Shown here: positions 18,552 through 45,572 of the stretch, piece after piece | How positions within the stretch are numbered: position 1 is the first letter of the stretch | Layout: every line of letters starts with the position of its first letter | DNA from: Candidatus Dojkabacteria bacterium | GTDB taxonomy: Bacteria > Patescibacteriota > Dojkabacteria > B142 > JAFGFJ01 | Reading direction: 5' to 3' | Assembly: GCA_016931155.1 (NCBI GenBank) | Contig: JAFGFJ010000006.1 | Span: 314,896-378,895, forward strand | DNA length: 64,000 nt | The notes under the pieces: generated by a model | Seen by the model: only the letters and a program-made list of their open reading frames with translations | What the model was told of the DNA's origin: nothing | The model's database searches: none | Made by a program: the position numbers and the translations under genes

Positions 18552-18554
18552 ATA

Positions 18555-19304
18555 TTGGGAATTACTATTAAAAACAAAAAAGAGATAGATTTAATGCGGG
18601 TAGGTGGGAAAATGCTTGGGGATATTGTTGAAGAACTTGGGAGGATGGTAAAGGCGGGAATTTCATCATGGGATATTGAAAAAAAATCCCAGGCTCTTTT
18701 ACAGCATTATAAGGTTAAGCCGGCGTTTCTGAATTATCTTGGCTATCCCTGTGTCTCATGTGTTGGATTAAATGACACAGCTGTACATGGGATTCCAAGT
18801 AAAGATGAAATTTTGAATGAGGGAGATATTGTTAGTATTGATATGGGACTGATTTATCAGGGGATGTATTTGGATCATGCTGTTACTGTCCCTGTCGGAA
18901 AAATCTCCAGTGAGAGTGCGAAGCTCATTAATGTGACTAGAGATGCGATGAAAGCTGGAATAAATCAGGCAAAAGAGGGAAATACGGTTGGAGATATAAG
19001 TCATGCTATTCAGACTACTGCGGAGCTTGCAGGGTTTTCTGTAATAAGGCAAATGGTAGGACATGGAGTAGGTTACCAGGTGCACGAACCTCCTCAAATT
19101 CCCTGCTTTGGAGAAAAAGGGACTGGAGAAATGCTTGAAGAAGGTATGACTCTTGCAATTGAGGCAATGGTAAATGCAGGTGGTGCAGAAATATTGATAT
19201 TGGAGGATGGTTGGACGACAAAAACGCAGGACGGAAAGAATTCTGCAATTTTTGAACATACTATAGTAGTTGGGGAGAAAAAGTCGGAGATTTTGACCGA
19301 GTAG
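18555..19304 (+). CDS. map: Type I methionine aminopeptidase (TTG start)
   Basis: VHGIPS...GDIVSIDMG...HGVGYQVHEPPQIP...LAIEAM...FEHT metal-ligand blocks. It follows secY directly, with no adk between them. Confidence 0.94.
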   Translation: MGITIKNKKEIDLMRVGGKMLGDIVEELGRMVKAGISSWDIEKKSQALLQHYKVKPAFLNYLGYPCVSCVGLNDTAVHGIPSKDEILNEGDIVSIDMGLIYQGMYLDHAVTVPVGKISSESAKLINVTRDAMKAGINQAKEGNTVGDISHAIQTTAELAGFSVIRQMVGHGVGYQVHEPPQIPCFGEKGTGEMLEEGMTLAIEAMVNAGGAEILILEDGWTTKTQDGKNSAIFEHTIVVGEKKSEILTE

Positions 19305-19386
19305 TTTTAAATTTGGTATTTATTTGATATTTTTTGCGAAAAATTAATGAATTTAGGCAAAATGGCTTTGTTTGAAGGGAGTTCTT

Positions 19387-19395
19387 TGATATAAT
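19387..19395 (+). promoter_or_regulatory. Extended -10 promoter (TGATATAAT) upstream of infA
   Basis: Exact TGnTATAAT at 19387-19395, about 60 nt upstream of the infA ATG. The identical 9-mer occurs before two other genes in the window. Confidence 0.5.
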
Positions 19396-19455
19396 TATCG
19401 TCTGCTATGGATTAATGGCTGATGGCGGCTTTGCCGTATTTTTGTGTTTTCAAAT

Positions 19456-24026: not shown

Positions 24027-25316
24027 ATGAATCTAAATAGAACCAAATTAACATATGTAATACTTGGTTTAATTCTTCTATTTTCTTTTGTAACGAGAAT
24101 ATACAGAGTATGGATTCCTGCTGAGTACTATTTTGACGAGGTTTATCATGCTGTTACAGCAAAACTTTATGCCAGGAATGATCCTTCCGGGTATGAATGG
24201 TGGCATGATGAGCCAGAACCTGGTACTGCGGTTGAATGGCTACATCCCCCGATTGCAAAACTTACACAAGCTTTAGGAATAATTCTTATAGGTGAGAACA
24301 GTCTCGGGTGGAGAATATCTTCAGTTGTATTTGGAGTTGGCGTTGTTATGGCGACTTTTCTTGTTGCTAATAAACTTTCAAAATCAAGAAAAGTCGCCCT
24401 TTTGTCTGCAATTCTACTAAGTCTTGATGGTCTTGTTTTTGTCCAGTCACGTATAGCAATGAATGATATCCATGTTACTTTTTTTATTCTAATGAGTGTC
24501 TTTTTTTATTCAAAATGGAAAGACTCTCAAGAGAAACAGTTGAATCTTGTTTTGAGTGGTGTATTTACAGGCATAGCGATTGCTACAAAATGGAGTGGTG
24601 TGTTTCTGCTTGGGATATTTATTATTGATCAACTTCTTACATGGATGCCTCGAATGATCTCGAGAAAGAAGTTCCCATCTTTTGCTTTGCTCTCCAATTT
24701 ATTCATTAATTTTATTTTTCTGCCTGTGTTGATATATGTATTATCTTTTTCACAGTTTTTCCTTCAAGGGCATAGCTGGAAACAATTTGAAGGACTTCAC
24801 AGTCAAATATGGCATTATCAGACGAGTCTTGAAGCAACTCATCCTCGTCAATCAAGTCCAATTGAGTGGGTGTTGGATCTGAAGCCAGTCTGGATGTATG
24901 TGAATTATGATTCAGGAGATAAGGTTGGGAATATATATAATTTGGGTAATCCACTTATCTTTTTTGGAGGACTTATTGGTATTTTGGGGATAGTTTATAC
25001 AATTATTCGAACAAAAAACAGGAATTATATTTTGCTCGTTTTAGCATATTTGATCGTCTGGTTGCCATGGATGTTTTCTCCCAGAATAATGTTTTTCTAC
25101 CATTATTTACCCGCAGTACCTTTTCTGACAATAATACTTTCAATTTTCCTTATGTCTATGATAAATGCCAAGTCAAGATTGATAAAGTATTTGGCGTATC
25201 TATTCCTCTTTGCGTGTGCTATATGGTTTTTTCTTTTTTATCCATATTTAACAGGTCTTCCAGTCTCAAAAGAGTTTGTTTCAAAGGTTTACTATATCCT
25301 GCCGGGCTGGAAATAA
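24027..25316 (+). CDS. GT-C / GT39 (PMT-type) phospholipid-carrier-dependent glycosyltransferase
   Basis: Polytopic membrane protein whose first-loop YFDEVYHAVTA (DE motif) and WLHPPIAKL are typical of dolichyl/polyprenyl-phosphate-mannose protein mannosyltransferase-like enzymes. Confidence 0.8.
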   Translation: MNLNRTKLTYVILGLILLFSFVTRIYRVWIPAEYYFDEVYHAVTAKLYARNDPSGYEWWHDEPEPGTAVEWLHPPIAKLTQALGIILIGENSLGWRISSVVFGVGVVMATFLVANKLSKSRKVALLSAILLSLDGLVFVQSRIAMNDIHVTFFILMSVFFYSKWKDSQEKQLNLVLSGVFTGIAIATKWSGVFLLGIFIIDQLLTWMPRMISRKKFPSFALLSNLFINFIFLPVLIYVLSFSQFFLQGHSWKQFEGLHSQIWHYQTSLEATHPRQSSPIEWVLDLKPVWMYVNYDSGDKVGNIYNLGNPLIFFGGLIGILGIVYTIIRTKNRNYILLVLAYLIVWLPWMFSPRIMFFYHYLPAVPFLTIILSIFLMSMINAKSRLIKYLAYLFLFACAIWFFLFYPYLTGLPVSKEFVSKVYYILPGWK

Positions 25317-29715: not shown

Positions 29716-30981
29716 ATGGAAAGACATTCAGTGCCCCAAAATATTATGGATGTCGAGTTCAAGCTTTTTGGAAGCCTGACCGTAAGACAGTTCGCTAACC
29801 TTGCAGGATCTATTGTCGTTGCGGTTATTTTATATTTTTTTAATATTCCCGGAATTATCAAATGGCCAGCAATCGTCGGTTTTGTTTTCTTGGGCATAAG
29901 TTTGGCACTGGTTAAGATAAATGGTCAAACATTTGGTACTTGGCTTGGCAATTTTCTGGCTTCTATGTTTAGTTCCCAGAGGAAAATATGGAAGAAAGAT
30001 CCGAAAGTTCCTGAGATACTTACAAAGACTTACCGTCCACGAGTAAGTAATGAACAGCTTGTTTCTGCGAAGAAAAAAGAGTTACCTCCTTTTCTACGTG
30101 AGGATATAATTCAATCTACAAACGTAGTAGATGAAGAGGAGGAAGAGCGGCTAAAGAAATTAGAAAAATACATTCTTGGTGGTACCTCTTCAACGATAAG
30201 TGAGCAATTAATTTCAGACGAAGAAAAAGCACAACGACCGGTAATAATTGATCCTTCAGATCAAAATCTTGCTGGCACAATGAATACGGCAAATGAGGAT
30301 AATTATTCTATAAATCAGTCGGACGAATTCGCAGTAATTGGAAAGAAGATGGCTAATCAGAGAGAGCGACCGATAAGCTCAAGACTTGTGCATAAGAACC
30401 TTGCGGAAAACATAGGAATTGCTGTAAGTGAAGATACTAAAGAGTCCGGTTTGGGCAAGGAAAAAGAAAAAAAGTCAGAAATAGGTTATCTTTCTGAGAA
30501 ACCTGTTAATGATATGAACAGAGGATTAGATGTGAAAAGGAGTTCTTCCGACGAATTGATAGAGGCTAATAAAATACTGCAGGAAAGGATACAGGAACTT
30601 ACAGAAAAAGCGAAAAAATCTCCTGATGACTCTCAGATAGCTCAAAAACTTGCAGAGATGGAAAAACGTCTGGTGGAAATTCAGTCGGGAGGTTCGTTCG
30701 CTAATGAAAAAATAGTATCTCAAAAACCAAATGTTATTAGTGGTATAGTAACTGATAAAGAAAATAAATTACTTCCTGATGTTAGGGTGTTGATTAAGGA
30801 CAGAAGGGGTTTTTTGGTTAGATCACTGATTACTGATAAGCAAGGTTACTTTGTTACGACAACTTCACTTCCTGACGGCGATTATTTAGTTGAATTTGAA
30901 AGCGATAGACATCCTTTTGACCAGTATAAAGTTAACCTGAACGGGTCTTTGAAAGATACGTATAAATTTACTGCCAGATGA
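29716..30981 (+). CDS. PrgI/VirB3-like membrane protein fused to a CarboxypepD_reg-like beta-sandwich domain
   Basis: The N-terminus (SVPQNIMDVEFKLFGSLTVRQFANL plus two TM helices) resembles the PrgI family. Next comes an acidic/coiled linker, and the C-terminus (ISGIVTDKENKLLPDVRVLIKD...TDKQGYF...DGDYLVEF) resembles a carboxypeptidase-regulatory-like fold. Confidence 0.65.
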   Translation: MERHSVPQNIMDVEFKLFGSLTVRQFANLAGSIVVAVILYFFNIPGIIKWPAIVGFVFLGISLALVKINGQTFGTWLGNFLASMFSSQRKIWKKDPKVPEILTKTYRPRVSNEQLVSAKKKELPPFLREDIIQSTNVVDEEEEERLKKLEKYILGGTSSTISEQLISDEEKAQRPVIIDPSDQNLAGTMNTANEDNYSINQSDEFAVIGKKMANQRERPISSRLVHKNLAENIGIAVSEDTKESGLGKEKEKKSEIGYLSEKPVNDMNRGLDVKRSSSDELIEANKILQERIQELTEKAKKSPDDSQIAQKLAEMEKRLVEIQSGGSFANEKIVSQKPNVISGIVTDKENKLLPDVRVLIKDRRGFLVRSLITDKQGYFVTTTSLPDGDYLVEFESDRHPFDQYKVNLNGSLKDTYKFTAR

Positions 30982-31000
30982 TTTATCTTATTAGTTAATA

Positions 31001-31684
31001 ATGGCGTTTTTAGGAAGAAAAGAAACAACAACTCAGGAACATCTTGATATTGAGGATGTCAGAGATGATCTTGTTGTGTTAAAAAATGGTAACGTTTCTC
31101 TTGTTATGGAGACGACTTCTTTGAACTTTGATCTTCTTTCGGAAGAGGAACAGGATATACGAATTCTTGCCTTTGCAGGGCTTATGAACTCATTGAATTT
31201 CCCTGTACAGATAGTTGTTAGAACAGAAAGAACAGACGTAACTGATTATGTAGATAAGCTAAAGATCTATAAGGAAAAACAGATTTCGTTGGCCTTAAAA
31301 AGACAAATAGAGATTTACATGCAATTTATTAAGAATCTTACTGTGAACACCGAGGTTCTTGATAAAAGATTCTTTGTTGTTATACCAGGAATAATATCAA
31401 GTATACAAAGAACTAGTGCTGTGAGACAGATCTTCGGTAAACCAGTAAAAATTAAAAATATCGAGGAGGTGCTTGAAAAAGCCAAATTACTTCTTTATCC
31501 AAAACGTGATCATCTGCTGAAGCAGTTTCAAAAAATGGGGATAATTGCAGAGCAACTAAAAACTGATGATTTAATACGTTTGTATTACGGTATTTATCAA
31601 CCGGATACTCCTGGAATTAAGAAATTAATTTTGAAAAAACAGGATTTTTCTACTGGGATTGTAGAAACTTTAAAAGAAGAATAA
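31001..31684 (+). CDS. Hypothetical soluble protein, possibly a stand-alone VirB4 N-terminal-domain-like partner
   Basis: 227-aa ORF ending 4 nt before the VirB4-like gene. Its pattern (LDIEDVRDDLVVLKNGNVSLVMETTSLNFDLLSEEEQD...LNSLNFPVQIVV) recalls the N-domain of VirB4/TraC ATPases, but it has no Walker motifs. The functional call is inference. Confidence 0.6.
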   Translation: MAFLGRKETTTQEHLDIEDVRDDLVVLKNGNVSLVMETTSLNFDLLSEEEQDIRILAFAGLMNSLNFPVQIVVRTERTDVTDYVDKLKIYKEKQISLALKRQIEIYMQFIKNLTVNTEVLDKRFFVVIPGIISSIQRTSAVRQIFGKPVKIKNIEEVLEKAKLLLYPKRDHLLKQFQKMGIIAEQLKTDDLIRLYYGIYQPDTPGIKKLILKKQDFSTGIVETLKEE

Positions 31685-31688
31685 CAAT

Positions 31689-33635
31689 ATGTGGATATTT
31701 GGAAAAAGCAAAAAAGAAAAGGAAAAAGAGAAGGAACAGACAAGTCAGTCAGAGGATCTTGAAGAGAAGGCAATTGAAAAATTCGCTGAGGGATTGATTG
31801 ATGTAAAAGATCTGATAGCTCCGTCAGCGATGGAGGTGGATTTTAACGATGTTCTTGTAGGAAATAAGTACTTTAGAACTTTCCTTGCTACTGGATTTCC
31901 AAGCCATGTCGGACCAAATTGGCTTTCTCCACTTATCAATTTTGACTTTCCTGTAGATATAAGCACGTTTTATTATCCTGTGGATAGTTCAATGATAATG
32001 CAAAGACTCAAACGAAAGATTGGAGAAATGGAGGCAACAATCAGTCTTGATCTTGAAGCAGGAAAAGTGGTTGATCCATATGTTAAGGTTGCACTTGAAG
32101 ATGCAAAGAATTTACAGGAACAAATAGCAAAAGGTACAGAGAAATTTTTTCACTTTGCTCTTTATGTAACTATTCGAGCAGGCAGTATCAGGGAGCTTGA
32201 AAAAATCTCGAAGAATCTTATTTCAACAATGTCTTCTATTAGTGTGATTCTAAAGGTGGCTACTTTGCAGCAGGAACAAGGTTTTCAGAGTGTTGTACCT
32301 GTAGGAATAGACAAGATCTATATGACCAGAAATATGGATACGACCTCTTTGGCGACCACATTCCCATTCGTTAGCTCAGAGCTTACTATGGATACTGGTA
32401 TTTTGTACGGAATAAATAAACACAATAGAAGTCTTGTGATTTTTGACAGGTTTGAACTTGAAAATGCTAATGCAGTTGTTTTTGCAACTTCCGGGGCGGG
32501 AAAAAGTTATATGGTAAAGCTTGAGGCTATGAGAAGTCTTATGTTCGGGACTGAAATACTGATAATTGATCCCGAAAGAGAATATGAGAAGCTAACGAAA
32601 ACAATTGGAGGAGAATACGTATCGTTTTCGCAAGATGGCGCGCAAAAATTGAATCCATTTGAGCTTTCAGGAATTTATGACAAAGATGAAGACGAGCTAA
32701 GAATGAAAATTCTATCACTTCACGGCCTTATGAGGATTATGATGGGTGGAGATTTTTCTCCGGAAGAATCTGCAATACTTGATAGGGCACTTATTTTGAC
32801 GTATAAAGAAAAAGGCATTACGGTTGATCCTGTCACACACAAAAAAGAACCACCTCTTCTTGAGGATTTATATAAGATTCTCCAGGCAATGGCAGAGCCT
32901 CAAGCTCATAATCTTGCGACAAGACTTGAGAGGTTTGTAAGAGGAAGTGCAGCTGGTATTTTTGACAGAAAATCAAATATTGAGATTAAGAATACATTTA
33001 CTGTTTTTAGTATTCGAGAGTTGAGTGATGACCTAAGGCCTATAGCAATGTATATGATGCTTGATTTTATTTGGACAAGAGTGAAAAGACTTCGAAAGAA
33101 AAGACTTCTAATAGTGGATGAGGCATGGTGGATGATGCAGTATCCAGATGCAGCAAAATTTATCCACTCAATGGCAAAAAGAGCCAGAAAGTACGGTCTT
33201 GGGCTTACTACAATTACTCAAGATGTTGAGGACTTTTTGAGTACGGATTACGGGAAAGCTGTTGTTACAAATTCATCAATACAAATATTAATGAAGCAAA
33301 GTCCTGTAGCTATAGATAAGATTCAGAAGATATTCTATTTGTCTCAAGGTGAGAAGAACTATCTACTTTCAGCAGGTATTGGGGAAGGTCTATTCTTTGC
33401 CGGATCAAATCATGTGGCAATTCAGGTAATTGCGAGTGAAAATGAGCATAATCTAATAACTACATCTTATAAAGATATGGAGAAAGAGGAGAAGAAAAAA
33501 GCGGCATTGGCAGAAGAAGCTGTAAAAAATGCCGGAATTGGTATTGCAGATATTCCTGAAAATACAAACCAGCAAGTTTCCCCTACTGATAATATTAATT
33601 CCTATACTGGTAATACTTCTTCCAATGCGGTATAA
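31689..33635 (+). CDS. VirB4/TrsE-like type IV secretion ATPase
   Basis: N-domain (YFRTFLATGFPSHVGPNWLSPLINF), Walker A ATSGAGKSYMVK, Walker B RLLIVDEAWWMM, and a TTITQDVEDF block. 648 aa. Confidence 0.85.
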   Translation: MWIFGKSKKEKEKEKEQTSQSEDLEEKAIEKFAEGLIDVKDLIAPSAMEVDFNDVLVGNKYFRTFLATGFPSHVGPNWLSPLINFDFPVDISTFYYPVDSSMIMQRLKRKIGEMEATISLDLEAGKVVDPYVKVALEDAKNLQEQIAKGTEKFFHFALYVTIRAGSIRELEKISKNLISTMSSISVILKVATLQQEQGFQSVVPVGIDKIYMTRNMDTTSLATTFPFVSSELTMDTGILYGINKHNRSLVIFDRFELENANAVVFATSGAGKSYMVKLEAMRSLMFGTEILIIDPEREYEKLTKTIGGEYVSFSQDGAQKLNPFELSGIYDKDEDELRMKILSLHGLMRIMMGGDFSPEESAILDRALILTYKEKGITVDPVTHKKEPPLLEDLYKILQAMAEPQAHNLATRLERFVRGSAAGIFDRKSNIEIKNTFTVFSIRELSDDLRPIAMYMMLDFIWTRVKRLRKKRLLIVDEAWWMMQYPDAAKFIHSMAKRARKYGLGLTTITQDVEDFLSTDYGKAVVTNSSIQILMKQSPVAIDKIQKIFYLSQGEKNYLLSAGIGEGLFFAGSNHVAIQVIASENEHNLITTSYKDMEKEEKKKAALAEEAVKNAGIGIADIPENTNQQVSPTDNINSYTGNTSSNAV

Positions 33636-33643
33636 ATAAAAAG

Positions 33644-34204
33644 ATGTTTCCACTAGATATTTTTACAAAACAATTCAACCTGAGTGGGCTAGTACTTATA
33701 GCCTCTGTTGCTATTTTTTCTTTGGCAGTAATTATTCTTTTGGTGAATGTTGTTATATTAAACAGGAAGCTAAAAAAAGCTACTACACCGACGTATGGTT
33801 TTGCAGGAAAGCCAATATATCCCATTATTGCAACATTGCTAATATCTGTATCTATACCTCTAGCTGTATATTCTTTATCTCAGGAGACTACTTTTGAACA
33901 AAAAGCAGAAGAAAATGTGATTCTACAGAGTAGTCATTATGTGGTATCAAGAGATGGGGAGAATTTACGGCTTGAGTTTAATGTTGTTCCATATGTAGAT
34001 GGGGTAGCTTGGGGAGAAAAGTCGTTTGATATTTTCTGGTCATTTAAGGGAAAAACATCCAAAACTAGCTATGAGTTTAATAAATCTGCGATTAATCCCA
34101 GTAAAATGACAATTACTTTGCCAAAAGGTGAGTATGATCTTACTATTCTTGTTACTTATGAGAATAGATCTCAGAGGTTAGAACAAAAGCTTGTTCTAAA
34201 ATAA
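33644..34204 (+). CDS. Hypothetical two-TM membrane protein with a beta-rich C-terminal domain (last gene of the VirB4 module)
   Basis: TM helices LVLIASVAIFSLAVIILLVNVVIL and IYPIIATLLISVSIPLAVYSL. It starts 8 nt after the ATPase stop. No family recognised. Confidence 0.7.
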   Translation: MFPLDIFTKQFNLSGLVLIASVAIFSLAVIILLVNVVILNRKLKKATTPTYGFAGKPIYPIIATLLISVSIPLAVYSLSQETTFEQKAEENVILQSSHYVVSRDGENLRLEFNVVPYVDGVAWGEKSFDIFWSFKGKTSKTSYEFNKSAINPSKMTITLPKGEYDLTILVTYENRSQRLEQKLVLK

Positions 34205-36162: not shown

Positions 36163-39141
36163 TTAGAAGGTTTTATGTTCTTTAGCATTGATTAGTCCGC
36201 ACTTCTTATATTTTAGACCGCTACCGCAAGGGCAAGGGTCATTTCTTCCGATTTTTAGTTTTGTGGTAGTATCCTGTTGTTTACCTCTCTGTAAATATTT
36301 CCCTTCTTTTTTTTGTTTGATTTTTAAATCATTAGGCTGTTGTTTTGTTTGCATTTCTCTATCTTCTATAAGTATATTCTCTATTTGTGAAATATTTGTG
36401 GATACGCTCTCCTGTGTTTTCTGTAATATCCTTTTAATCTTCAAAATTATTCTTGCAAAATTGGAGTCAACATTACCAATAAATTGTTCAAATAATAGGA
36501 ACCCTTCATTTTTGTATTCGACAAGTGGTTCTCTTTGAGCATATCCTCTAAGACCTATTCCTTGCCTGAGGTCTGTCATGCTATCGAGGTGTTCTGTCCA
36601 GCCGTGATCCATACTTTCAAGATAATAGTTTTTTACAATAAGGGGATAGTCTTTACCATATTCCTCAACTTTAACTCTCAACATTCTTCCAACCAAATCT
36701 TTAAGGTAGCTAGTTATCTCATTTAACTTTTTTCCTTCTATTTCCATTTCCAGGTACTCTCCAGCTTTTGTTGCATCAGTTAATTTCTTCTTTGTTGGAA
36801 TTTTAGTGACAAGCTCATCTTCGAATAAGTCCAGGAAATCCGCTATCACTTGTTTTCTGTCCAAATCATCACTTCTTTCAGGGATAAAGTGTTTATTAAC
36901 AATAAAGTCGACTTCTTCCTCCAATAACCTTTGTAATCTTTCGGTGAGCTTCATTGTTTTCTCCTTCGTCTTCAGTATTTCTTCTTTCTTGTACAATGCT
37001 GCAAGATGATCCGTTTCTTCCAAAATCGTTCTTCTCTTTTTGTAATAGATTTCTCTTTGCTTATTTACTACGTCATCATACTGAACAAGCTGCTTTCTTA
37101 CATCAAAATTTGTACCCTCCATCCGCTTTTGTGCGTTTTCAATTGCGCCACTTATCATTCCAGATTCAATGGGCATATCTTCAGGAATATTTGTCATTTC
37201 CATTAATTTTTGTACAATTGGACCGCCCTGTATTCTCATGATTTCATCGTCAAGTGCGACGTAAAACCTGGATACTCCAGGTTCGCCCTGTCGTCCTGAT
37301 CTTCCTCTGAGCTGATTGTCGATCCTTCTAGCTTCATGCCTTTCTGATCCAATTATCTGTAGTCCTCCTGTTTTAACGACCTCTTCAAACTCCTTATCTG
37401 TAGCATTGAATCCACCGAGTTTGATATCCGTTCCCCTACCAGCCATATTTGTTGCAACTGTTACTGCAGATTTCTTTCCTGCATTTGCGACTATGTTTGC
37501 TTCTCTTTCATGGTATTTTGCATTTAGTACTTCGTGATCTACTCCTTTTTTATCAAGGAGCCTTGACAGATATTCCGACTTTTCAATTGAAGTGGTTCCG
37601 ATAAGCACTGGTTGTCCGTCCTTGTTTTTTTCCGTTACTTCTTCTGCTATTGCATTGAATTTTGCTTCCTGGTTTTTGTAGACTCTGTCAGGCAGATCTT
37701 TTCTTATTATCGGCTTGTTTGTAGGTATGGAAAGTGAGTCTAGAGAATATATCTTAAAAAATTCTTCGGCCTCTGTCATGACTGTCCCTGATCCTCCTGA
37801 TAGCACTTTGTATAATCTAAAAAGATTTTGGAATGTAATCGTTGCGAGTGTCTTTGACTCTCTTTTTATCTCCACTCCTTCTTTTGCTTCTATGGCTTGA
37901 TGAAGACCTTCTGAATATCTCCTGCCGGCTAGAACTCTTCCGGTAAATTCGTCAACTATCATGACTTCACCATCTCTAACCAGGTAATGATCATCCAATT
38001 TGTATAAGGTTTCAGCCTTCAGGGCATTCTCAAGATGGTGTGCCAATCTATAATCTTCCCATATGTTTTTTACTCCAAGCAATTTTTCTGCTTTTTCAAT
38101 CCCTTCATCAGTTAAAACAGATGAGTGTGCTTTTTCATCCAAAACATAGTGTCGCTCGGGTTCTAGATTCTTTACAAGTTTTGCAAATTTGATATAAAGT
38201 TCGTTTGATTGTTCAGCTGGGGCAGAAATTATCAGGGGAGTTCGTGCTTCGTCTACAAGAATAGAGTCGGCCTCGTCAACAATGCAAAAGTACAGTTCTC
38301 CCTGAACAATGTCTTCAGTAGTTCGTACCATATTGTCTCTGAGATAATCAAAGCCAAACTCATTATTTGTTCCATAAATCACATCACACTTATATGCTTC
38401 CTGTTTTGATACCTCAAGGAGATTTAGACCATCTGAGTCTCCAGGGTTCATTACCTTTATTTTTTTTCTTTGCTTATACGCTTCTTCATTTTTGAATTCC
38501 TTTATCTGCTCATCAGTAATATATTTGTAGGATTTCTCAGGTGTAATTACTCCTACGCTAAATCCCAACTCAGAGAGAATGTGACCTGCGTATTCACCAT
38601 CTCTTTTTGCAAGATAATCGTTTACAGTGACAACATGTGATCCTCTTCCGGTAAGACTGTATAAGGCTGCAGGCATCTGAAAAACGAGAGTTTTTCCTTC
38701 TCCGGTTTTCAGCTCTACTAACTTAAAACCTTGTGCAAGAATCGCACTGGCCAGAAGCTGAACATCAAACTGTCTAATAAATTTTTTTCCTTTACGCATT
38801 TTTCTTTTGGACACCTCTCTAATCATTGCGTAAACTTCAGGAAGAAATTCAAGCAATTTATCTTGTATGGCTTTTTCGTATTGAGGCATATCTTTTCCTT
38901 TTTCCGGAGTTTTTATTGACATTTTGTCTTCTGAAGGCACTTTTTCTACTAAAGTGTTCAATTCATTTCTTATTGTATCAAGCCTTTTTTGGAAGGATTT
39001 GATGTCTTTTTTTTCGAAATCTGGTTCAAGAGAATTAATTTTCTCGACAATGGGCCACGCAGCTTTTATCTGCTTTTCATTAGAGTCGAAAAATTTTGAA
39101 AAAATATTCAGGAACATTTGTGGAATTAAATCAAACATCAT
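36163..39141 (-). CDS. secA: Preprotein translocase ATPase SecA
   Basis: DEAD-like motor blocks (LKTGEGKTLV, IVDEADSILVDEARTPLIIS, TNMAGRGTDIKLGG) and a C-terminal zinc finger CPCGSGLKYKKCG. The true start may be the ATG at 39117 (MFLNIFSKFF), since TGCTATCAT overlaps the 39141 ATG. Confidence 0.96.
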   Translation of the reverse strand: MMFDLIPQMFLNIFSKFFDSNEKQIKAAWPIVEKINSLEPDFEKKDIKSFQKRLDTIRNELNTLVEKVPSEDKMSIKTPEKGKDMPQYEKAIQDKLLEFLPEVYAMIREVSKRKMRKGKKFIRQFDVQLLASAILAQGFKLVELKTGEGKTLVFQMPAALYSLTGRGSHVVTVNDYLAKRDGEYAGHILSELGFSVGVITPEKSYKYITDEQIKEFKNEEAYKQRKKIKVMNPGDSDGLNLLEVSKQEAYKCDVIYGTNNEFGFDYLRDNMVRTTEDIVQGELYFCIVDEADSILVDEARTPLIISAPAEQSNELYIKFAKLVKNLEPERHYVLDEKAHSSVLTDEGIEKAEKLLGVKNIWEDYRLAHHLENALKAETLYKLDDHYLVRDGEVMIVDEFTGRVLAGRRYSEGLHQAIEAKEGVEIKRESKTLATITFQNLFRLYKVLSGGSGTVMTEAEEFFKIYSLDSLSIPTNKPIIRKDLPDRVYKNQEAKFNAIAEEVTEKNKDGQPVLIGTTSIEKSEYLSRLLDKKGVDHEVLNAKYHEREANIVANAGKKSAVTVATNMAGRGTDIKLGGFNATDKEFEEVVKTGGLQIIGSERHEARRIDNQLRGRSGRQGEPGVSRFYVALDDEIMRIQGGPIVQKLMEMTNIPEDMPIESGMISGAIENAQKRMEGTNFDVRKQLVQYDDVVNKQREIYYKKRRTILEETDHLAALYKKEEILKTKEKTMKLTERLQRLLEEEVDFIVNKHFIPERSDDLDRKQVIADFLDLFEDELVTKIPTKKKLTDATKAGEYLEMEIEGKKLNEITSYLKDLVGRMLRVKVEEYGKDYPLIVKNYYLESMDHGWTEHLDSMTDLRQGIGLRGYAQREPLVEYKNEGFLLFEQFIGNVDSNFARIILKIKRILQKTQESVSTNISQIENILIEDREMQTKQQPNDLKIKQKKEGKYLQRGKQQDTTTKLKIGRNDPCPCGSGLKYKKCGLINAKEHKTF

Positions 39142-39274: not shown

Positions 39275-40033
39275 CTAGAGTTCCAAAGCAATTACCACAA
39301 TTCTGTTGTCACTTCCCCCGGGTACTCCTGATTGAAGTGAACAGGATATTATCTTGATAAAGTTTCGTTTTGATGTTTCGTAAATATTTACGTCGTTCGG
39401 ATTTTTTATTGTGACACTCCGAACTGAGTATCTTATTGGCTTTCCTGATGGATCATTTACCTGAATTAGATCACCCTTTTCTAGAAGATTTATATTCCAG
39501 CAACTTCTTGGGTCATCTTGTTGAAAGTATCTTCTGTGGCATAGTACTATTGTTTCACCGTTTCCAGGAGTACTGGAAGATGGATACATCCAAAATCCTT
39601 GATCCATTAGAGAATCACCATCGCTTCCCCCGAACACATTTGCTCTCACATTTATTTTTGGAATGATTAACTCTCCAATTACTCCTGTTGTAACTTTGGT
39701 ATCGAATGCAAACTTTTGTTGCTCAGGCGAGAGAATATCATCTCTTGTATATATTTTCTCTTTATTCAATTGACTGTCTTGAGCAGTGGAAGTATCTTCT
39801 GTACTGCTTTTTTGTTTCTCTTCTTCCACCTTCTTAACCTCTGACATTGAAGGAACTAAAAAATTATATCCGTACTTCTGCCTACCATTTTCTCCTTTTA
39901 AAAATACTGAAATAAGGCTTATATGTGTTGTTCTTGCCTTTGTGTATAGAAAAAGTCCGCTAACAATAAGAAAGCTTAGTATAAACAAAATAAAAATCAC
40001 CTTTGTTGTTGAATCTTTTTCCTCGTTTTCCAT
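39275..40033 (-). CDS. Sortase-family transpeptidase, membrane-anchored, with atypical active-site contexts
   Basis: N-terminal TM helix, then LIIPKINVRANVF...PGNGETIVLCHRR (His)...GDLIQV...NFIKIISCS (Cys)...DNRIVVIA (Arg). Canonical sortases read GHR and TLxTC at the His and Cys sites. Confidence 0.7.
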   Translation of the reverse strand: MENEEKDSTTKVIFILFILSFLIVSGLFLYTKARTTHISLISVFLKGENGRQKYGYNFLVPSMSEVKKVEEEKQKSSTEDTSTAQDSQLNKEKIYTRDDILSPEQQKFAFDTKVTTGVIGELIIPKINVRANVFGGSDGDSLMDQGFWMYPSSSTPGNGETIVLCHRRYFQQDDPRSCWNINLLEKGDLIQVNDPSGKPIRYSVRSVTIKNPNDVNIYETSKRNFIKIISCSLQSGVPGGSDNRIVVIALEL

Positions 40034-40038
40034 TCCGA

Positions 40039-40047
40039 ATTATATCA
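40039..40047 (-). promoter_or_regulatory. Extended -10 promoter (TGATATAAT on the minus strand) of the sortase gene, with leaderless geometry
   Basis: Plus-strand ATTATATCA at 40039-40047 reads TGATATAAT on the minus strand. Only 5 nt separate the hexamer from the ATG at 40033. Confidence 0.5.
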
Positions 40048-40098
40048 CAGGAAACTATTGTAGTTATATATTTAATATTGTTCAAAACGCTAATACGA

Positions 40099-40107
40099 TG
40101 ATATAAT
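40099..40107 (+). promoter_or_regulatory. Extended -10 promoter (TGATATAAT) of the Cys-rich protein gene
   Basis: Exact TGnTATAAT. It overlaps the track's ATG at 40106, so the ATG at 40130 is the likelier start (~17-nt leader). Confidence 0.5.
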
Positions 40108-40129
40108 GCATTATTCCAATATAAAAACA

Positions 40130-41092
40130 ATGAGGAAGGAATTTGATGAGAAAAAAGTGAGGCTGGCTCTGATGGTTTGGGGATTTATGGTTATCCTTAT
40201 TGGGCTTATTATTGGAATTGTGACGGTTGGACCACAGCTTACTCCGCTTGAGGCACAAGGACAGATTTGCACGACTGGTGCAGATTGTCCTCCTTGTGAA
40301 TATCCACAGGTAGCTTTCTGCGACCATAGCGGATCTTCCAATCCTTGTCGTTCAGGAGAGGGTATATGTACATGTAGAGGCGTACCTCAAAGTGACCCAA
40401 CTTGTGGAGGTGCTGTTTGTATCTCAATTTCTCCGAGTGAGGCATGTGATCCTGGTGGGTGTCCTTCGGGTTACACTGACTGCGGGATAAGTGGTCACAG
40501 AACTGATAATTCTTCAGAATGTCAAGCTTTTGGCAGTTGTACTACTAGATGTGCTTCGTGTAATAACCCAACTACATTTGTTAGATATTGCAGACCGGAA
40601 GTTTCACCTGTTGAACCATCACCGTCACCGTCACCGTCACCATCACCGTCGCCCTCCTACCCAGACTATGAAATAGTAAAGGATGTTATTGACTCAGATA
40701 GTTTTTACGAAATAGGGGAGACTGTGAACTTTAGTGTTACAATCAGAAATACAGGGGATGTAACATTTGAAAAGGTAAAATTTAGGGATGTGTACAATCC
40801 TGCACGATTGGATTATCTATCTAGTCGTGGTAATAAAAATGGTGGCACAGACGTAGAGTTAAATTTCAATATTATTGAAAGTACTGGAATTATAACTCAT
40901 TCAAACCTTGCGGTAGAGTTGGGAAATTTGAATCCTGGGGATTACTATCGAATATTTTTTAGCTTTAGAGCTTTGGTAAGTGTTCCGAGAACATGCAACG
41001 AAGCCTTTGTTAATCCTGATGATTTGGGTGAGAAAAGGGACGATGCTTGTGTCTCGATTAATACTGTGTTTATTCCCGTACCTGATTTATAA
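40130..41092 (+). CDS. Membrane-anchored, extremely Cys-rich surface protein with a (PS)7 linker and a DUF11/CARDB-like C-terminal domain
   Basis: N-terminal TM helix LALMVWGFMVILIGLIIGIV. 17 Cys in ~115 aa (ICTTGADCPPCEY...CASCNN...YCRPE). PSPSPSPSPSPSPS linker. A beta-sandwich-like domain (GETVNFSVTIRNTGDVTFEKVKFRDVYNP). No LPXTG-type C-terminal sorting signal. Confidence 0.75.
   Translation: MRKEFDEKKVRLALMVWGFMVILIGLIIGIVTVGPQLTPLEAQGQICTTGADCPPCEYPQVAFCDHSGSSNPCRSGEGICTCRGVPQSDPTCGGAVCISISPSEACDPGGCPSGYTDCGISGHRTDNSSECQAFGSCTTRCASCNNPTTFVRYCRPEVSPVEPSPSPSPSPSPSPSYPDYEIVKDVIDSDSFYEIGETVNFSVTIRNTGDVTFEKVKFRDVYNPARLDYLSSRGNKNGGTDVELNFNIIESTGIITHSNLAVELGNLNPGDYYRIFFSFRALVSVPRTCNEAFVNPDDLGEKRDDACVSINTVFIPVPDL
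40616..40657 (+). repeat. Seven tandem 6-bp units (CCRTCA-like) encoding (Pro-Ser)7
   Basis: ccatca ccgtca ccgtca ccgtca ccatca ccgtcg ccctcc, read directly from the sequence. Confidence 0.9.
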
Positions 41093-41096
41093 TGTT

Positions 41097-41678
41097 CTAG
41101 CTCAATTCAAATCTGGAGATCTCTTTGTATACAGGACCTTGATTTGTTAGTGTGCTTTGAAGAATTGATATTGAATTTGCTGTAAAGGAAGTCTTTTTCT
41201 TTTCTACTCCTTCTAATATGCAGTGAATCTTCTTTTTGAAGTTTCTATTCACAGTTGGTTTTGCTCTTGCTATTGTCATATGATTAATTAAGGTTGCCCT
41301 ATCTTTTTTTCTCCCGGTATCTTCAAGTTTCAGCTCTTTAATAAATGAATGAACGGTATGGACGAGCAGATCAAGCTCTTTGTTTTTATTGACCAAACAG
41401 GAGAGCACAGTTGGTCTGGTTTCTCCTTTGAAGCCAAAATAAATTTTATTGAACTCTATACTTGCTTTCTTTAGTTTCCTCTTATATAGATTAAAGTACT
41501 CGATTATTCTATCAAGACTTTCTTTGGAAACATTATTCCCAAGAAACTTTATTGTTATATGAAGATGCTCCGGTTTTACAAATGTCAAATTTCTCTTTTC
41601 TTTATAAAAGAGTCTGGTAATGTCTCTAATTTTTTCTTTGATTTCCTGTGGCGGAAGAATTGTGATAAATAATCTCAT
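41097..41678 (-). CDS. thpR: RNA 2',3'-cyclic phosphodiesterase (2H phosphoesterase, ThpR/LigT family)
   Basis: Two HxT/S motifs in the expected positions: HLHITIKFLG and NHMTIAR. 193 aa. Confidence 0.8.
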   Translation of the reverse strand: MRLFITILPPQEIKEKIRDITRLFYKEKRNLTFVKPEHLHITIKFLGNNVSKESLDRIIEYFNLYKRKLKKASIEFNKIYFGFKGETRPTVLSCLVNKNKELDLLVHTVHSFIKELKLEDTGRKKDRATLINHMTIARAKPTVNRNFKKKIHCILEGVEKKKTSFTANSISILQSTLTNQGPVYKEISRFELS

Positions 41679-41682
41679 ATTT

Positions 41683-42507
41683 CTAACTTGATAGTCCTTG
41701 CAGGATAACTAGACTTAATAGCAATACAACGAGATATTCCAGTAACACCTCTTTTTTCAAAGAACCTTCGAGTTTGTGATGAAGAATTGCACTCGTAATA
41801 TAGAAAACCAGTAGGGTGTATGAGGAAGTCGCAAGAATCGAAAAGTTCGTATACGAGCTTAACGCAACTACTGTTTCAATAATTACTAAAGTGGTAATTA
41901 GATTGAAAATAATAGTTAAATAATTGAACTGATTTCTTCTTATCGTGACAATAGTATTGATCATGAATGCTGTCATTCCAATAAGAACGTAAGAAAGAAA
42001 AGGATCAAAACCAAAGTAATTTATAGTTTCAAGAATTGTGTTTGTAAGCTGGAAAAAAGTGATAAATTTGATAATGTCATATATGTAATGAGTTCTTTCT
42101 TCCAATTTGAATTTGTCTTCATAATATGCCCTGATATTAATGAACATTAATGTAAATATGAAAAAGCAAATAAAGAAGAAGAAATACTTGGGAAGTGTCA
42201 GGTGGTAGTAATATATTATTCCCAAGCAAGACATATATAGAGCAGTAGGCAGTAATAAGTGATGTGTAAATTGACTGAATTTAGAATAGGTATCAACCTG
42301 TGGTATTTCCATTTGAGCCAGGATTTTTTTTGAGTATATTTGGCTTGTCAGTACCTCGAAAACAAATACCAGATAAAGGATTATGCTTGCGATGAAGAAT
42401 AATTTTTGTTCCAGATTTATCATGAGCTCAACAAGAAATATGAGACCGATTGAGATGAAAAAACCGTAAAAGATTCCTCTTCTATTGTTTATTAAAAAGT
42501 TCTTCAT
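41683..42507 (-). CDS. Hypothetical polytopic membrane protein (~8 TM)
   Basis: Hydrophobic segments throughout. 4-nt overlap with the upstream CAP-domain gene. No family recognised. Confidence 0.7.
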   Translation of the reverse strand: MKNFLINNRRGIFYGFFISIGLIFLVELMINLEQKLFFIASIILYLVFVFEVLTSQIYSKKILAQMEIPQVDTYSKFSQFTHHLLLPTALYMSCLGIIYYYHLTLPKYFFFFICFFIFTLMFINIRAYYEDKFKLEERTHYIYDIIKFITFFQLTNTILETINYFGFDPFLSYVLIGMTAFMINTIVTIRRNQFNYLTIIFNLITTLVIIETVVALSSYTNFSILATSSYTLLVFYITSAILHHKLEGSLKKEVLLEYLVVLLLSLVILQGLSS

Positions 42508-43952
42508 TTTGTTAACCCTTCAATTATCGTCCCACCTGCTCCTCCAATAAGTACCATCAAAAGCAGAACAATGAAATTTGAAATATGCAAATGATGCTTC
42601 CCTCTTTCTTTATAGCCCAGGGGAAGATTTGTCCTGGCAAGGAGTAGGGCATCAAAAACAAAGAGTGAGACTATAATGAGAAGTGCAGTAATACTTACAA
42701 CATTTTTTACGCTTGGAAACTCTCGAGCAATAATACTTATCAGTTTATTTGTTGCGATTTCTTTTGAGGAAAGAGTTTCCATTGTACTCAATACATTTCC
42801 TGTTTCAATGGTTGAAGATGTGATGTTTCCAGCTTTGTCAATCGCAGTAATTGCTAGCGTGTTAGAAGATTCAGTAATGGGTCTTGCTATGTCTACTTCC
42901 CAGTAATCAGAATAAGGTATGCGAACAAAATTTTTCTCTTCTTCGTTACTGTATAGATATACTTTTTCGGTGTCATCGGAAATAAGTATTCTGAGACGAT
43001 AATTATCAATATTTTCTGTTGACAATATTTCTAACAAATCTGTGTTTATTACTGGTGCTTGAGTGTCTACAACTACGCTAACTATACTTGATTTTTCGCT
43101 GGAAACCCCATGCTCGTCTATGGAATATGAAGATATCAAATGATTCCCCTGTTCAAAAGGTTTGTCTGATGGTGGCTTGTATATAAAGATACCCCCTTGT
43201 GCATCAATATCAGCAATGTTTTTTTCATTGTCAATTATTTTTACTTTTGTTTCCTTTTTTGCTCGACCTCTTATCGTGAAAAATTGATCGTTTGTCCAGG
43301 TACCATTCTCAGGCTCTTCAATTAAGGGGGTATTTTGAATGTCATTTGTTGGAAGTGCTTCTTTCACCTGATGTTTTGAATCACTTGTTATTGGAAGCGC
43401 ATTATAGGAGTTAACTTGAGAGCCGAAATGAACGACAACTACTACATTATTGGGGTTTCCCTGGAAGTTACCCTGAACAATGGAAATACCTATCTCTCTG
43501 AACTCTGGTTTCAGCATATTATCTCTATGACTGGGACTATTCATCCATGCCTGTACTACAGCTTCGTTATCATTAAAACCTTCTGCAAGGTTCTCTCCTG
43601 CATAAATATATTCATAATTCTGATCCTTGAAAAAATCCCAAGGCGATTTCTTATCGGGACAATAGTGAGACCAGCAGTCAGAAGCAAGCATTGCTTTAGC
43701 TTTTTCTGACGCAGAATTAGTCAGTTTGCTGCTAACTACTAATTTCGAAAGTCCTCTGCTGGTTCTTTCTTTATTATGAAGGCTGACAAGTATGGAAGTA
43801 TCGATCGCTGCGTAAGCTTTAGATATCGGTAAGCTTCCCACAGTAATATTAAAAATGAAGAGGATTAGAGTAAAAATGGCTAGACTTCCTTTTCTCAGAA
43901 GAAGTGGATAGTAATTATTTGTTTTAGTAGGAATGAATAAGTTTTTGATCAC
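42504..43952 (-). CDS. Secreted/membrane-anchored CAP (SCP/YkwD-like) domain protein with Ig-like repeats (GTG start)
   Basis: N-terminal signal/anchor. CAP block (LHNKERTSRGL...AGENLAEGF...AVVQAWMNSPSHRDNML). A beta-rich middle region. Two C-terminal TM helices. Confidence 0.78.
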   Translation of the reverse strand: MIKNLFIPTKTNNYYPLLLRKGSLAIFTLILFIFNITVGSLPISKAYAAIDTSILVSLHNKERTSRGLSKLVVSSKLTNSASEKAKAMLASDCWSHYCPDKKSPWDFFKDQNYEYIYAGENLAEGFNDNEAVVQAWMNSPSHRDNMLKPEFREIGISIVQGNFQGNPNNVVVVVHFGSQVNSYNALPITSDSKHQVKEALPTNDIQNTPLIEEPENGTWTNDQFFTIRGRAKKETKVKIIDNEKNIADIDAQGGIFIYKPPSDKPFEQGNHLISSYSIDEHGVSSEKSSIVSVVVDTQAPVINTDLLEILSTENIDNYRLRILISDDTEKVYLYSNEEEKNFVRIPYSDYWEVDIARPITESSNTLAITAIDKAGNITSSTIETGNVLSTMETLSSKEIATNKLISIIAREFPSVKNVVSITALLIIVSLFVFDALLLARTNLPLGYKERGKHHLHISNFIVLLLMVLIGGAGGTIIEGLTK

Positions 43953-44018
43953 GTTATACTGAAAAAGTTGCTACAATATAGTATAAGTGTTCAGATATAA
44001 TCTCAAGTTTCGTAATAT

Positions 44019-45572
44019 ATGATTGTTAGAACAAGATTTGCTCCAAGTCCGACAGGATACGCTCATTTGGGCTTTGTGAGTAGAGTCCTTATTAATTATG
44101 CAATGGCCAGAAAACATGGCGGGAAGTTTGTATGGAGAAATGAGGACACTGATAGAGAAAGGTTTGTTGAAGGATCTCTAGAGTTTAATATGAGATGGAT
44201 GAGGGAGTTTGGACTTGATTGGGATGAGGGACCGGATATAGGTGGATCTTATGCGCCTTACAACCAAAGTGAAAGATTAGATATCTATAAGAATGCGGCG
44301 GAAAAACTTATTGAGAAAGGTTACGCTTACAGATGTTTTTGTTCAAAAGAAAGACTTTCAGAAATGAGAGAAGAACAGGAAAAAAAGAAGGAGAGAAAAC
44401 ACTACGATGGCCTTTGCAGAAATATATCTGCCAGTGAGATAGAAAGTAATTTAAAAAAGAGTATTGCATACACGGTAAGGGTAAAAATGCCAAGAGATAG
44501 AAAAATAGAATTTGACGATATCATTACACGCACTCATATTACTTGGAATTCAAATGAAGTTGATGATTATATTCTTTTAAAATCTGATGGTTATCCAACT
44601 TATCACCTTGCTGCAGTTGTTGATGATGCTGCAATGGAAATTTCACACGTTTTTAGAGGTTCAGAGTGGATTGCTACAACTCCAGTGCATCAAATAATTT
44701 ATGAAGGTCTTGGTATTACAGAAAAGGAGAGGCCGGGTATTGGTCATTTTACTGTTATTTTGGATCCTTCAACTCCTGGGAAAAAGTTTAGCAAGAGGAG
44801 TAGCTCTTTTAAGGCAAATGGACTTGTGATACAAGGTTATTTAAAACCTGCAATACTTAATTATCTAATGCTTCTTGGATGGGCACCAAAAGATGACAGA
44901 GAGCTTTTTACACTAAAGGAGTTTGTGGAAGCATTTGATCTTTCAGGGATGCAGAAAGCAAATCCAACCTGGGATCAAAATAAAATGGATTGGTTCAATG
45001 GTATTTATATTCGTGCACTTTCCCCAGATAATTTGATAAAGGAATTCACAAACTGGATTACTAATTACCTTTTTAAGGAGCCGGCTGAGGATGTTAAAGA
45101 GAATCTTACCAGTGCTGATCTTGACGTGAAGAGAGTTAATGAATTGTTAGATCTTGCAAGAGTAATTAAAGACTCAGACAGAGATGCTTTAAAATGCCAG
45201 CTTTTACTTACTCAGGAAAGATCTATAAATTTCTGGCATACACTAAGTCAAATAGAATTTTTCTATAGAAGACCTGAAAAAATCGATTGGCAAATTAAGC
45301 AGTTAAATAAAATAAAGGAAAACTTGGAGGAGATCAAATTAGATCTAATTAGTATGTATAGTTCTATGGATGATAATTCTTCAAAGTGGATGCACGCAAA
45401 ATGGGAGAAAGATATCCGTAGACTAGGGGATAAGTATAGGAAAAAACATGGTGATATTTTTATGCTGCTTAGAGTGTCTATTACAGGTGGACCATTTTCT
45501 CCTCCGCTTTTTGAATCTTCGCAGATACTGGGAAAAGAAGAGTGTCTAATAAGACTTAAAAATAATAAATGA
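44019..45572 (+). CDS. gltX: Glutamyl-tRNA synthetase
   Basis: RTRFAPSPTGYAHLG (HIGH-type motif), WRNEDTD, and KFSKRS (KMSKS-type motif). 517 aa. Confidence 0.93.
   Translation: MIVRTRFAPSPTGYAHLGFVSRVLINYAMARKHGGKFVWRNEDTDRERFVEGSLEFNMRWMREFGLDWDEGPDIGGSYAPYNQSERLDIYKNAAEKLIEKGYAYRCFCSKERLSEMREEQEKKKERKHYDGLCRNISASEIESNLKKSIAYTVRVKMPRDRKIEFDDIITRTHITWNSNEVDDYILLKSDGYPTYHLAAVVDDAAMEISHVFRGSEWIATTPVHQIIYEGLGITEKERPGIGHFTVILDPSTPGKKFSKRSSSFKANGLVIQGYLKPAILNYLMLLGWAPKDDRELFTLKEFVEAFDLSGMQKANPTWDQNKMDWFNGIYIRALSPDNLIKEFTNWITNYLFKEPAEDVKENLTSADLDVKRVNELLDLARVIKDSDRDALKCQLLLTQERSINFWHTLSQIEFFYRRPEKIDWQIKQLNKIKENLEEIKLDLISMYSSMDDNSSKWMHAKWEKDIRRLGDKYRKKHGDIFMLLRVSITGGPFSPPLFESSQILGKEECLIRLKNNK

Follow-up and report, generated by a model that had tools for sequence, protein, structure and literature searches.

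The window analysed here is a 64-kb stretch (64,000 nucleotides) of DNA from a Candidatus Dojkabacteria bacterium of the Candidate Phyla Radiation (CPR). In it, a sortase gene on the minus strand lies head to head with a plus-strand gene for an exported protein, which we call X. Three observations at this locus are solid: the two genes form a conserved divergent pair, the family of X has a fixed C-terminus, and X carries a cysteine-rich module that is a new domain. We tentatively propose that X is a dedicated client of the adjoining sortase, recognized through an abbreviated sorting tail that has no membrane segment, a reading that we consider quite possible, although short of probable.

A sortase and its divergent neighbour

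The sortase matches its Pfam family clearly (PF04203; E=1.5e-15; 57.5 bits, cutoff 26.6), and its sequence is shared in full (100% identity) by a database entry, ‘sortase [Candidatus Dojkabacteria bacterium]’, from a contig of 559,650 bp. The PDB sortases 2xwg and 24rr also match it (E=4e-06 to 5e-05), in alignments that stop at the TLxTC equivalent around Cys231. An earlier note on this DNA had read an intact His/Cys/Arg triad, and His166, Cys231 and Arg244 are indeed invariant in six homologues (alignment A5). The same note called both motif contexts unusual. LCHRR, around the catalytic His, proves to be a hallmark of the entire clade, whereas IISCS is limited to one Dojkabacteria subclade and distant relatives read (I/V)TC(T/H)P. 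Among the NCBIfam sortase class models (A–F and GN), SrtD gives the highest score, 45.7 against a cutoff of 140; the protein also scores far under the cutoffs of classes C (34.5/160), GN (TIGR03784; 29.9/158), E (24.5/160) and F (22/166). Because every class model fails by so much, we place it outside all recognized classes; judged by its sequence, it is a genuine sortase, catalytically complete in the triad, of an unclassified CPR clade. Two further Cys residues invariant in this clade, Cys165 and Cys178, may form a structural disulfide, and an invariant YNF motif in the linker that follows the transmembrane segment may be a lid or pseudo-substrate element. A sortase-like open reading frame (ORF) at another locus (L014, 4842-5618), in which the catalytic Cys is replaced (IVTND) and which has no X neighbour, is probably an inactive paralogue.

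The ORF of X begins at 40106, but we place the start at the ATG at 40130 (MRKEF..., 320 residues) because the orthologues begin there and an independent gene call for the same locus (L004) also gives 320 residues; translation probably does not begin at the in-frame ATG at 40106. With this start, the 96 nucleotides previously counted from start codon to start codon are exact. From N- to C-terminus, X consists of a basic and hydrophobic signal, the Cys-rich module, a (PS)7 linker, a DUF11 (CLIPPER) domain and a short tail. The signal (MRKEFDEKKVRLALMVWGF...LEAQGQ) is the counterpart of one conserved among relatives (27 N-termini compared), in which a basic stretch precedes an hhh-Y-[TS] motif (hhhY[TS]) that opens the hydrophobic core. 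In most of these relatives, AxA-type signal-peptidase sites (PAEAA, VDAAA, VQAA...) stand between the hydrophobic segment and the first Cys, and X of the window has a candidate A-x-G site, LEAQG/Q (A-Q-G). The previous description of X as membrane-anchored is thus doubtful. Its N-terminus is probably a family-specific signal peptide that is cleaved, not a permanent anchor, which would leave mature X with no membrane attachment of its own.

The terminal domain links X to the stalks of adhesins. DUF11 was renamed CLIPPER in 2025, and the crystal structure 9IFR revealed a CnaA-like domain, typical of fibrillar-adhesin stalks, with a Lys715–Asn806 isopeptide and Asp748 as catalyst; a Lys–Asn isopeptide with a catalytic Asp is found in many, but not all, CLIPPER domains (PMC12617251). 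The (PS)7 linker and DUF11-like beta-sandwich named in the earlier note are both present in X. The domain scores 27.2 bits with DUF11 (PF01345, E=5.2e-06; gathering cutoff 24.6) and 26.8 with TIGR01451 (cutoff 24), and AlphaFold2 (AF2) models it with a predicted local distance difference test (pLDDT) score of 97-98. In Foldseek it matches 9IFR (E=1.8e-06, TMt 0.74) and isopeptide domains of the sortase-dependent adhesins and pilins EbpB, BspA/SspB and PrgB, with cohesins further down the list (2vo8, TMt 0.67; 4dh2). Lys184, Asp220 and Asn290 are the sole invariant columns across X and 28 full-length relatives (320-residue numbering). From this triad and the fold matches, we infer an intramolecular Lys184–Asn290 isopeptide with Asp220 as its catalyst. 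The domain also contains a Cys289/Cys307 pair. A SpyTag-like arrangement, in which the penultimate Asp would bond to the first-strand Lys, was rejected, as the triad is invariant and Asp319 lies in the coil of the tail.

The earlier note left it to relatives to say whether the two genes belong together, and they do: the head-to-head arrangement is kept at 11 of 13 X-type loci (window/L004, L001, L002, L005, L008, L009, L010, L011, L015/16, L017 and L018), across Dojkabacteria, Doudnabacteria and Saccharibacteria. Context was looked up from the X side at ten loci (window/L004, L001, L002, L005, L006, L008, L015/16, L017, L018 and L021), and from the sortase side by an A5-based scan of one genome per GTDB species, which returned six loci. 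Three of these six have a divergent X, in Doudnabacteria (L009), Saccharibacteria (L011) and Dojkabacteria (L010). At L010, the neighbour is a giant X with seven CLIPPER domains, whose N-terminus matches protein P0116, itself ending NLDTDI. Equivalent spacers measure 79-210 nucleotides at eight related loci with starts from independent gene calls; a promoter and terminator scan of the 96-nucleotide intergenic region gave results no better than shuffles. The outer neighbours vary, with SecA, FtsW or AbiEii on one side and LigT, a 126-residue gene or a 522-residue gene on the other. The pair stays intact through changes on both sides, including AbiEii and FtsW insertions, an extra 126-residue gene and replacement of LigT by the 522-residue gene. 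Around it lies a larger block, GluRS / CAP+Big_13 membrane protein / DUF5656 / (S30AE) / LigT / X and sortase / (FtsW) / SecA / Zn_peptidase_2, whose conservation across loci of the same three groups is unusually deep. Both in the window (29716-34204, plus strand) and in L005, a cluster that resembles a type IV secretion system of the Gram-positive type lies just upstream of Zn_peptidase_2 and SecA; besides small membrane proteins, it encodes a VirB4/TraG-like ATPase (PF19044, E=5.5e-26) and a member of the PrgI family.

The fixed tail and the exchangeable head

This terminal domain is shared by 33 relatives, of which all but two have [T/P]-D-[LIVMF]-COOH as their precise end (31 proteins), the remaining two ending in TDK; the Asp column is invariant and the Thr column at least 90% conserved (D144 and T143 in alignment A4). 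The P-D-L of the window is the local form of this end. Relatives that carry it span 23-60% identity, none of the 31 has a C-terminal extension, and the distance from the last conserved Cys varies between 10 and 15 residues while the end itself is fixed. AF2 predicts the last nine residues of X as coil beyond the final strand, and pLDDT declines there from 89 to 71. In all fetched loci, which together contain 259 ORFs of at least 100 residues, the ending is confined to X proteins and one ORF inside an X gene (L015/L016). On one 1.2-Mb contig (L021, 3414-11738), tandem X paralogues of 204, 717 and 1245 residues occupy the place of X and all end in PxTDI, beside an apparently split copy and with no sortase within 8 kb.

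About half of the relatives read xPxTD plus one residue (PPVTDL, RPVTDI, IPETDL, VPDTDL, PPITDL), a form of the sortase pentapeptide in which Asp replaces Gly; the same slot reads IPVPD-L in the window. A residue other than Gly after Thr has a precedent in the LPQTXE motif of L. plantarum (PMC3619620). By the definition in that source, two of the three features of a sorting signal fail, because X ends (...FIPVPDL) one residue after Asp, with neither a hydrophobic segment nor a basic tail. As the earlier note had stated, X is therefore not a classical sortase substrate. One relative, P0066 (357 residues), has the same terminal CLIPPER domain and a tail that reads ...QPPNTG followed by 12 residues (CSSNSSSPWCKL), with no transmembrane segment; its PPNTG, which occupies the same position, connects the TD-hydrophobic tails with an LPXTG-like motif.

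At the other end of the protein, the earlier count of 17 Cys in about 115 residues is borne out, within 108 residues (47-154), and two more Cys lie in the C-terminal domain. Most proteins of the window carry 0-3 Cys, and the Cys density of X is far from chance. The module has the signature C-x5-C-x2-4-CE[YF]P...CxC...CP.G..DCG.S...C..C.NP...YRYC. It has no match in Pfam-A, PDB sequences or PDB folds, and word-index searches with X and with a profile of the module returned no homologues. Relatives with the module (P0014, P0042, P0049, P0151, P0080, P0007 and P0089; 29-56% identity) came up only when 1.84 billion representatives were searched exhaustively with phmmer, and a metagenome scan with the four-sequence alignment A7 yielded just two loci. 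Among the four closest copies, 15 of the 17 Cys are invariant, as are 10 among all eight, together with the non-Cys residues of CE[YF]P and NP...Y.C. The module is therefore a true domain family. With a confident AF2 model (pLDDT 85.3; predicted template modelling score, pTM, 0.76), we describe it as a new domain family on CPR surface proteins.

The module is also not tied to one kind of protein. The nearest X orthologues (L001, L002 and P0015) share the signal and the C-terminal domain, but the part between them, which also contains Cys, is different and longer. The module, in turn, is found on proteins that are otherwise unlike X and terminate in an LPPT[GA]-like motif, a transmembrane segment and a long charged tail. 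It therefore behaves like an exchangeable head cassette. Conservation of the Cys positions, on which the earlier note had laid weight, thus holds among homologous modules but not across X orthologues, where the module is swapped out. Proteins of the second class occur in tandem arrays and end C[LTA][PT][PG][TA][AG]-L[IV][ST]DEVDRI, then a transmembrane segment and a charged tail of ~45 residues. Because the NCBIfam LPXTG-anchor models do not recognize these tails, we call them only sorting-signal-like; they may be a distinct CPR sorting signal. A further interchangeable Cys-rich element in the X family is the acidic myxo_disulf_rpt repeat (TIGR02232, E=2.9e-12) at residues 582-613 of P0116, the 1643-residue X-type protein of L010.

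Every copy of the module has an odd number of Cys (long form, 17; short form, 13), and therefore at least one Cys must be free, metal-bound or linked outside the module. Such an array had been judged odd for a minimal anaerobic genome, a view that published work on the CPR does not support. MdbA-like oxidoreductases with VKOR, as well as sortases, are widespread in the CPR (PMC6744442), and Cys-rich exported proteins were noted before in Peregrinibacteria, a CPR group (PMC4736985). The GC-richness remarked on earlier is real (0.48 in the module against 0.367 for the window), but its cause is trivial. The excess lies entirely at codon position 2 (0.69 versus 0.34), and GC at position 3 is 0.23, compared with 0.30 in other genes; the rise is therefore an effect of amino-acid composition (Cys, Gly, Pro, Ser and Thr). 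Foreign origin was rejected on the same grounds, the third-position value being below the genome mean. Elsewhere in the window, 15 kb upstream, lies a gene for a PMT-family protein O-mannosyltransferase (24027-25316, plus strand; PF02366, E=9e-25), a candidate enzyme for adding sugars to X-type proteins at their (PS)7 and PT-rich linkers; in L021, a PMT_2 gene (17892-19424) adjoins the CAP gene of the conserved block.

Table 1. Positions of the features described, in window numbering unless a locus is named; residues are those of the protein concerned.
Feature	Residues	Nucleotides	Strand	Basis or remark
X gene, favoured start	1-320	40130-41092	+	ORF 40106-41092
X N-terminal signal, basic and hydrophobic	1-45	40130..40264	+	alignment A1, comparison of 27 N-termini
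X Cys-rich head module, 17 Cys, no Lys	46-157	40265..40600	+	phmmer relatives, alignments A3 and A7
X Pro/Ser linker, VSPVE(PS)7YP	158-178	40601..40663	+	low AF2 confidence
X CLIPPER (DUF11) CnaA-like beta-sandwich	179-311	40664..41062	+	Pfam DUF11 and DUF7507, AF2, Foldseek
X Lys184 codon, predicted isopeptide triad	184	40679-40681	+	invariant column
X Asp220 codon, predicted isopeptide triad	220	40787-40789	+	invariant column
X Asn290 codon, predicted isopeptide triad	290	40997-40999	+	invariant column
X tail TVFIPVPDL and stop	312-320	41063..41092	+	alignment A4; terminal P-D-L-COOH
Divergent intergenic region		40034..40129	.	96 nucleotides, start codon to start codon
Sortase gene	1-252	39275..40033	-	Pfam PF04203, alignments A2 and A5
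Sortase N-terminal transmembrane segment	12-30	39944-40000	-	
Sortase linker, ~85 residues, between transmembrane segment and catalytic domain; invariant YNF		39860-39868 (YNF)	-	
Sortase catalytic domain	123-249		-	
Sortase Cys165 codon, adjoins catalytic His	165	39539-39541	-	invariant in clade
Sortase catalytic His166 codon, LCHRR	166	39536..39538	-	invariant column, A5
Sortase Cys178 codon	178	39500-39502	-	invariant in clade
Sortase catalytic Cys231 codon, KIISCS	231	39341..39343	-	
Sortase triad Arg244 codon	244	39302..39304	-	invariant column, A5
Larger block around the pair		41097-45572 and 36163-39141		also L001, L002, L009, L015, L017, L018
Second class of Cys-module proteins		L019 22-2481; L020 434-2107; L022 5421-11546		

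What the pair may do

If X is a client of the sortase beside it, its path to the surface could run as follows. X would be exported by Sec through its family-specific signal, which is probably then cleaved. The mature protein would consist of an exchangeable, disulfide-rich head of ~110 residues, the (PS)7 spacer, one isopeptide-locked CLIPPER stalk and a flexible tail, whose x-P-x-[T/P]-D-hydrophobic-COOH end would serve as an abbreviated sorting signal. The membrane-bound sortase, using Cys231, His166 and Arg244, could attack the bond preceding Asp, free the last two residues and transfer the new C-terminus of X to the cell wall. The variable head of the wall-linked protein would thereby face away from the cell, as it does in the sortase-anchored surface adhesins of Gram-positive bacteria.

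Several lines of evidence argue for such a relation. First, the divergent pair persists at 11 of 13 loci while the outer genes change. Second, the end of the tail is fixed in 31 of 33 relatives, although the spacer before it varies and AF2 gives no strand there; the non-canonical sorting signal suggested in the earlier note is, with this near-invariant [T/P]-D-hydrophobic end, a live explanation. Third, the order of head, stalk (with up to seven domains in L010) and C-terminus matches that of sortase-anchored fibrillar adhesins (PMC12617251), and the closest matches in fold come from domains in sortase-dependent adhesins and pilins. Fourth, the same Cys-rich head rides on proteins with an LPPT[GA]-like motif, membrane segment and charged tail. 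Finally, the sortase triad is intact, a residue other than Gly after Thr is known elsewhere, and the AxA sites in most relatives would leave the mature protein otherwise anchorless. With head, stalk and fixed end in this order, a conserved pair, a pentapeptide-like tail and probably no other anchor, we take a client dedicated to its neighbouring sortase to be the best single explanation, to be held with rather less than even confidence. In its fullest form, the proposal is that x-P-x-[T/P]-D-hydrophobic-COOH is a minimal sorting signal of the CPR, read by a sortase clade specific to the CPR (LCHRR...TC), and that the single client, encoded head to head with the enzyme, bears interchangeable disulfide-rich heads of unsolved fold that probably attach to host cells; we offer this broader statement as possible, but on the doubtful side.

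Other observations weigh against a client relation, and most of them favour the chief alternative, in which the two genes are neighbours with no substrate relation. X would then be exported by Sec and either anchored at its N-terminus or released, its tail would be a structural cap left over from a CLIPPER junction, the sortase would act on other, LPXTG-type proteins, and adjacency would reflect an ancient CPR envelope-biogenesis block and shared regulation. X lacks both the hydrophobic segment and the basic tail, two of the three parts of a sorting signal; the window protein has Pro, not Thr, ahead of Asp; and the Pro of the pentapeptide is missing in about half of the relatives (NRDTD-L, NISTD-L). 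Junctions between tandem CLIPPER domains show the same small-[G/D]-hydrophobic pattern, reading [PS]-[GD]-hydrophobic-x-h-x-K before the first-strand Lys of the next domain, and the terminal motif may therefore descend from such a junction. Two of the 13 X loci have no nearby sortase (L006, where the neighbour is FolD, and L021), and X is absent beside the sortase at L012, L013 and L014. Moreover, the block GluRS-CAP-DUF5656-LigT-X-sortase-(FtsW)-SecA is itself conserved across CPR classes, so some of the adjacency of X and sortase may be inherited synteny, and related organisms have proteins with LPPT[GA]-like motif, membrane segment and tail. Against these points, an exact end at 23-60% identity, after a variable spacer and with no extensions, is unusual for the mere end of a fold, and AF2 predicts the tail as coil, not strand. 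In addition, the head-to-head pair survives a change of both outer neighbours, and no protein with LPXTG and a membrane segment was found in the 64-kb window. We judge this structural and syntenic account unlikely, but serious as the main rival to a dedicated client.

A second alternative keeps the partnership but not the cleavage. X could be a scaffold or acceptor resembling a basal pilin, or a cohesin-like docking module whose C-terminal carboxylate is bound as a ligand by another protein, such as one with a PDZ or CAP domain. The basal pilin EbpB and, lower down, cohesins are among the top fold matches; T-D-L-COOH fits the class I PDZ-ligand pattern; and L008 and L011 have PDZ proteases of the HtrA type close to X. 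Nevertheless, Lys184, the sole invariant Lys, is expected to be consumed by the intramolecular isopeptide, and X has no Lys at all between residues 37 and 178, which removes a pilin-motif nucleophile from head and linker. The cohesin matches in a profile search of PDB sequences are weak and non-significant (E=0.14), and there is no sign of a dockerin-like partner. We therefore regard an uncleaved partner as improbable. Polymerization of X into sortase-driven pili was rejected for related reasons: head and linker are Lys-free, and neither the sequence nor the alignments of relatives contain a pilin motif or any conserved Lys column outside the triad. The ‘Pam pilus’ described for the CPR in a preprint is a donor-strand pilus, unrelated to this locus. 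Least probable of all, and very much so, is a metal-binding or redox-active head (for example, with Cys4 sites built from two CxxC-type motifs) whose chemistry has nothing to do with the sortase: the two invariant motifs C-x2-4-C and C-x2-C and the odd Cys count would suit it, but the spacing of the first motif ranges from 2 to 4 residues, the module is extracytoplasmic, lacks similarity to known metal-binding folds and is swapped in orthologues for unrelated Cys-containing heads, as the variable heads of surface proteins or adhesins typically are, and genes for oxidative folding (MdbA/VKOR) are common in the CPR (PMC6744442).

More broadly, some CPR groups encode sortases almost universally (PMC6744442), and our literature search found no published work on CPR sortase substrates, on a TD-hydrophobic terminal motif or on the Cys module. 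If X is a true client, it would be the first concrete class of sortase substrates from the CPR, a radiation both large and uncultured. The tripartite sorting signal of the textbooks would then be reducible to a terminal hexapeptide, and protein ligation by sortases would gain a natural tag of very short length. Regardless of mechanism, an exchangeable 17-Cys cassette behaves as expected of host-recognition heads in episymbionts.

Comparison with known systems

Loci in which a specialized sortase lies beside one client with a variant pentapeptide are known from class B SrtB-IsdC, with its NPQTN motif, and from the TIGR03784 ‘class GN/marine sortase’ with one neighbouring target. In contrast to X, those clients keep the full tripartite signal, and the window sortase falls far short of the TIGR03784 cutoff. 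A looser analogy is Braun lipoprotein Lpp, which L,D-transpeptidases (YkuD) join to peptidoglycan through a Lys side chain. As proposed for X, the determinant of attachment sits at the very end of the protein, no membrane segment follows it and the enzyme is a Cys transpeptidase, although YkuD is unrelated to sortases and the linkage is through a side chain rather than a backbone acyl-enzyme.

In Actinobacteria, oxidative folding by MdbA/VKOR is coupled to sortase pilus assembly, and homologues are widespread in the CPR (PMC6744442). Such a system offers a possible disulfide route for an exported Cys-rich sortase client in a CPR cell, although the 64-kb window holds no Dsb or VKOR candidate, MdbA included. 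The CLIPPER domain of the Acinetobacter fibrillar adhesin B9T28_05395 (9IFR) has its triad, K715-D748-N806, at a spacing comparable to that of K184-D220-N290 in X, and ~30% of CLIPPER domains have a disulfide beside the isopeptide (PMC12617251), as predicted for X. Unlike the mid-protein tandem stalk of the Acinetobacter adhesin, the domain of X is a single terminal copy, with ~15 residues inserted between Asp and Asn and the conserved TD-hydrophobic terminus after it.

The closest overall parallels are the sortase-anchored adhesins and pilins of Gram-positive bacteria, including Cna and other MSCRAMM proteins, the AgI/II proteins BspA/SspB, PrgB and EbpB. By contrast with these proteins, the motif of X ends one residue from the C-terminus and is followed by neither a hydrophobic segment nor a basic tail; X has Asp rather than Gly after Thr or Pro and no pilin-motif Lys; and its host belongs to the CPR. 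Both, however, share the same plan: an N-terminal signal, a variable head, a CnaA-like stalk on the C-terminal side with an isopeptide, predicted in the case of X, and a sortase gene adjoining that of the protein.

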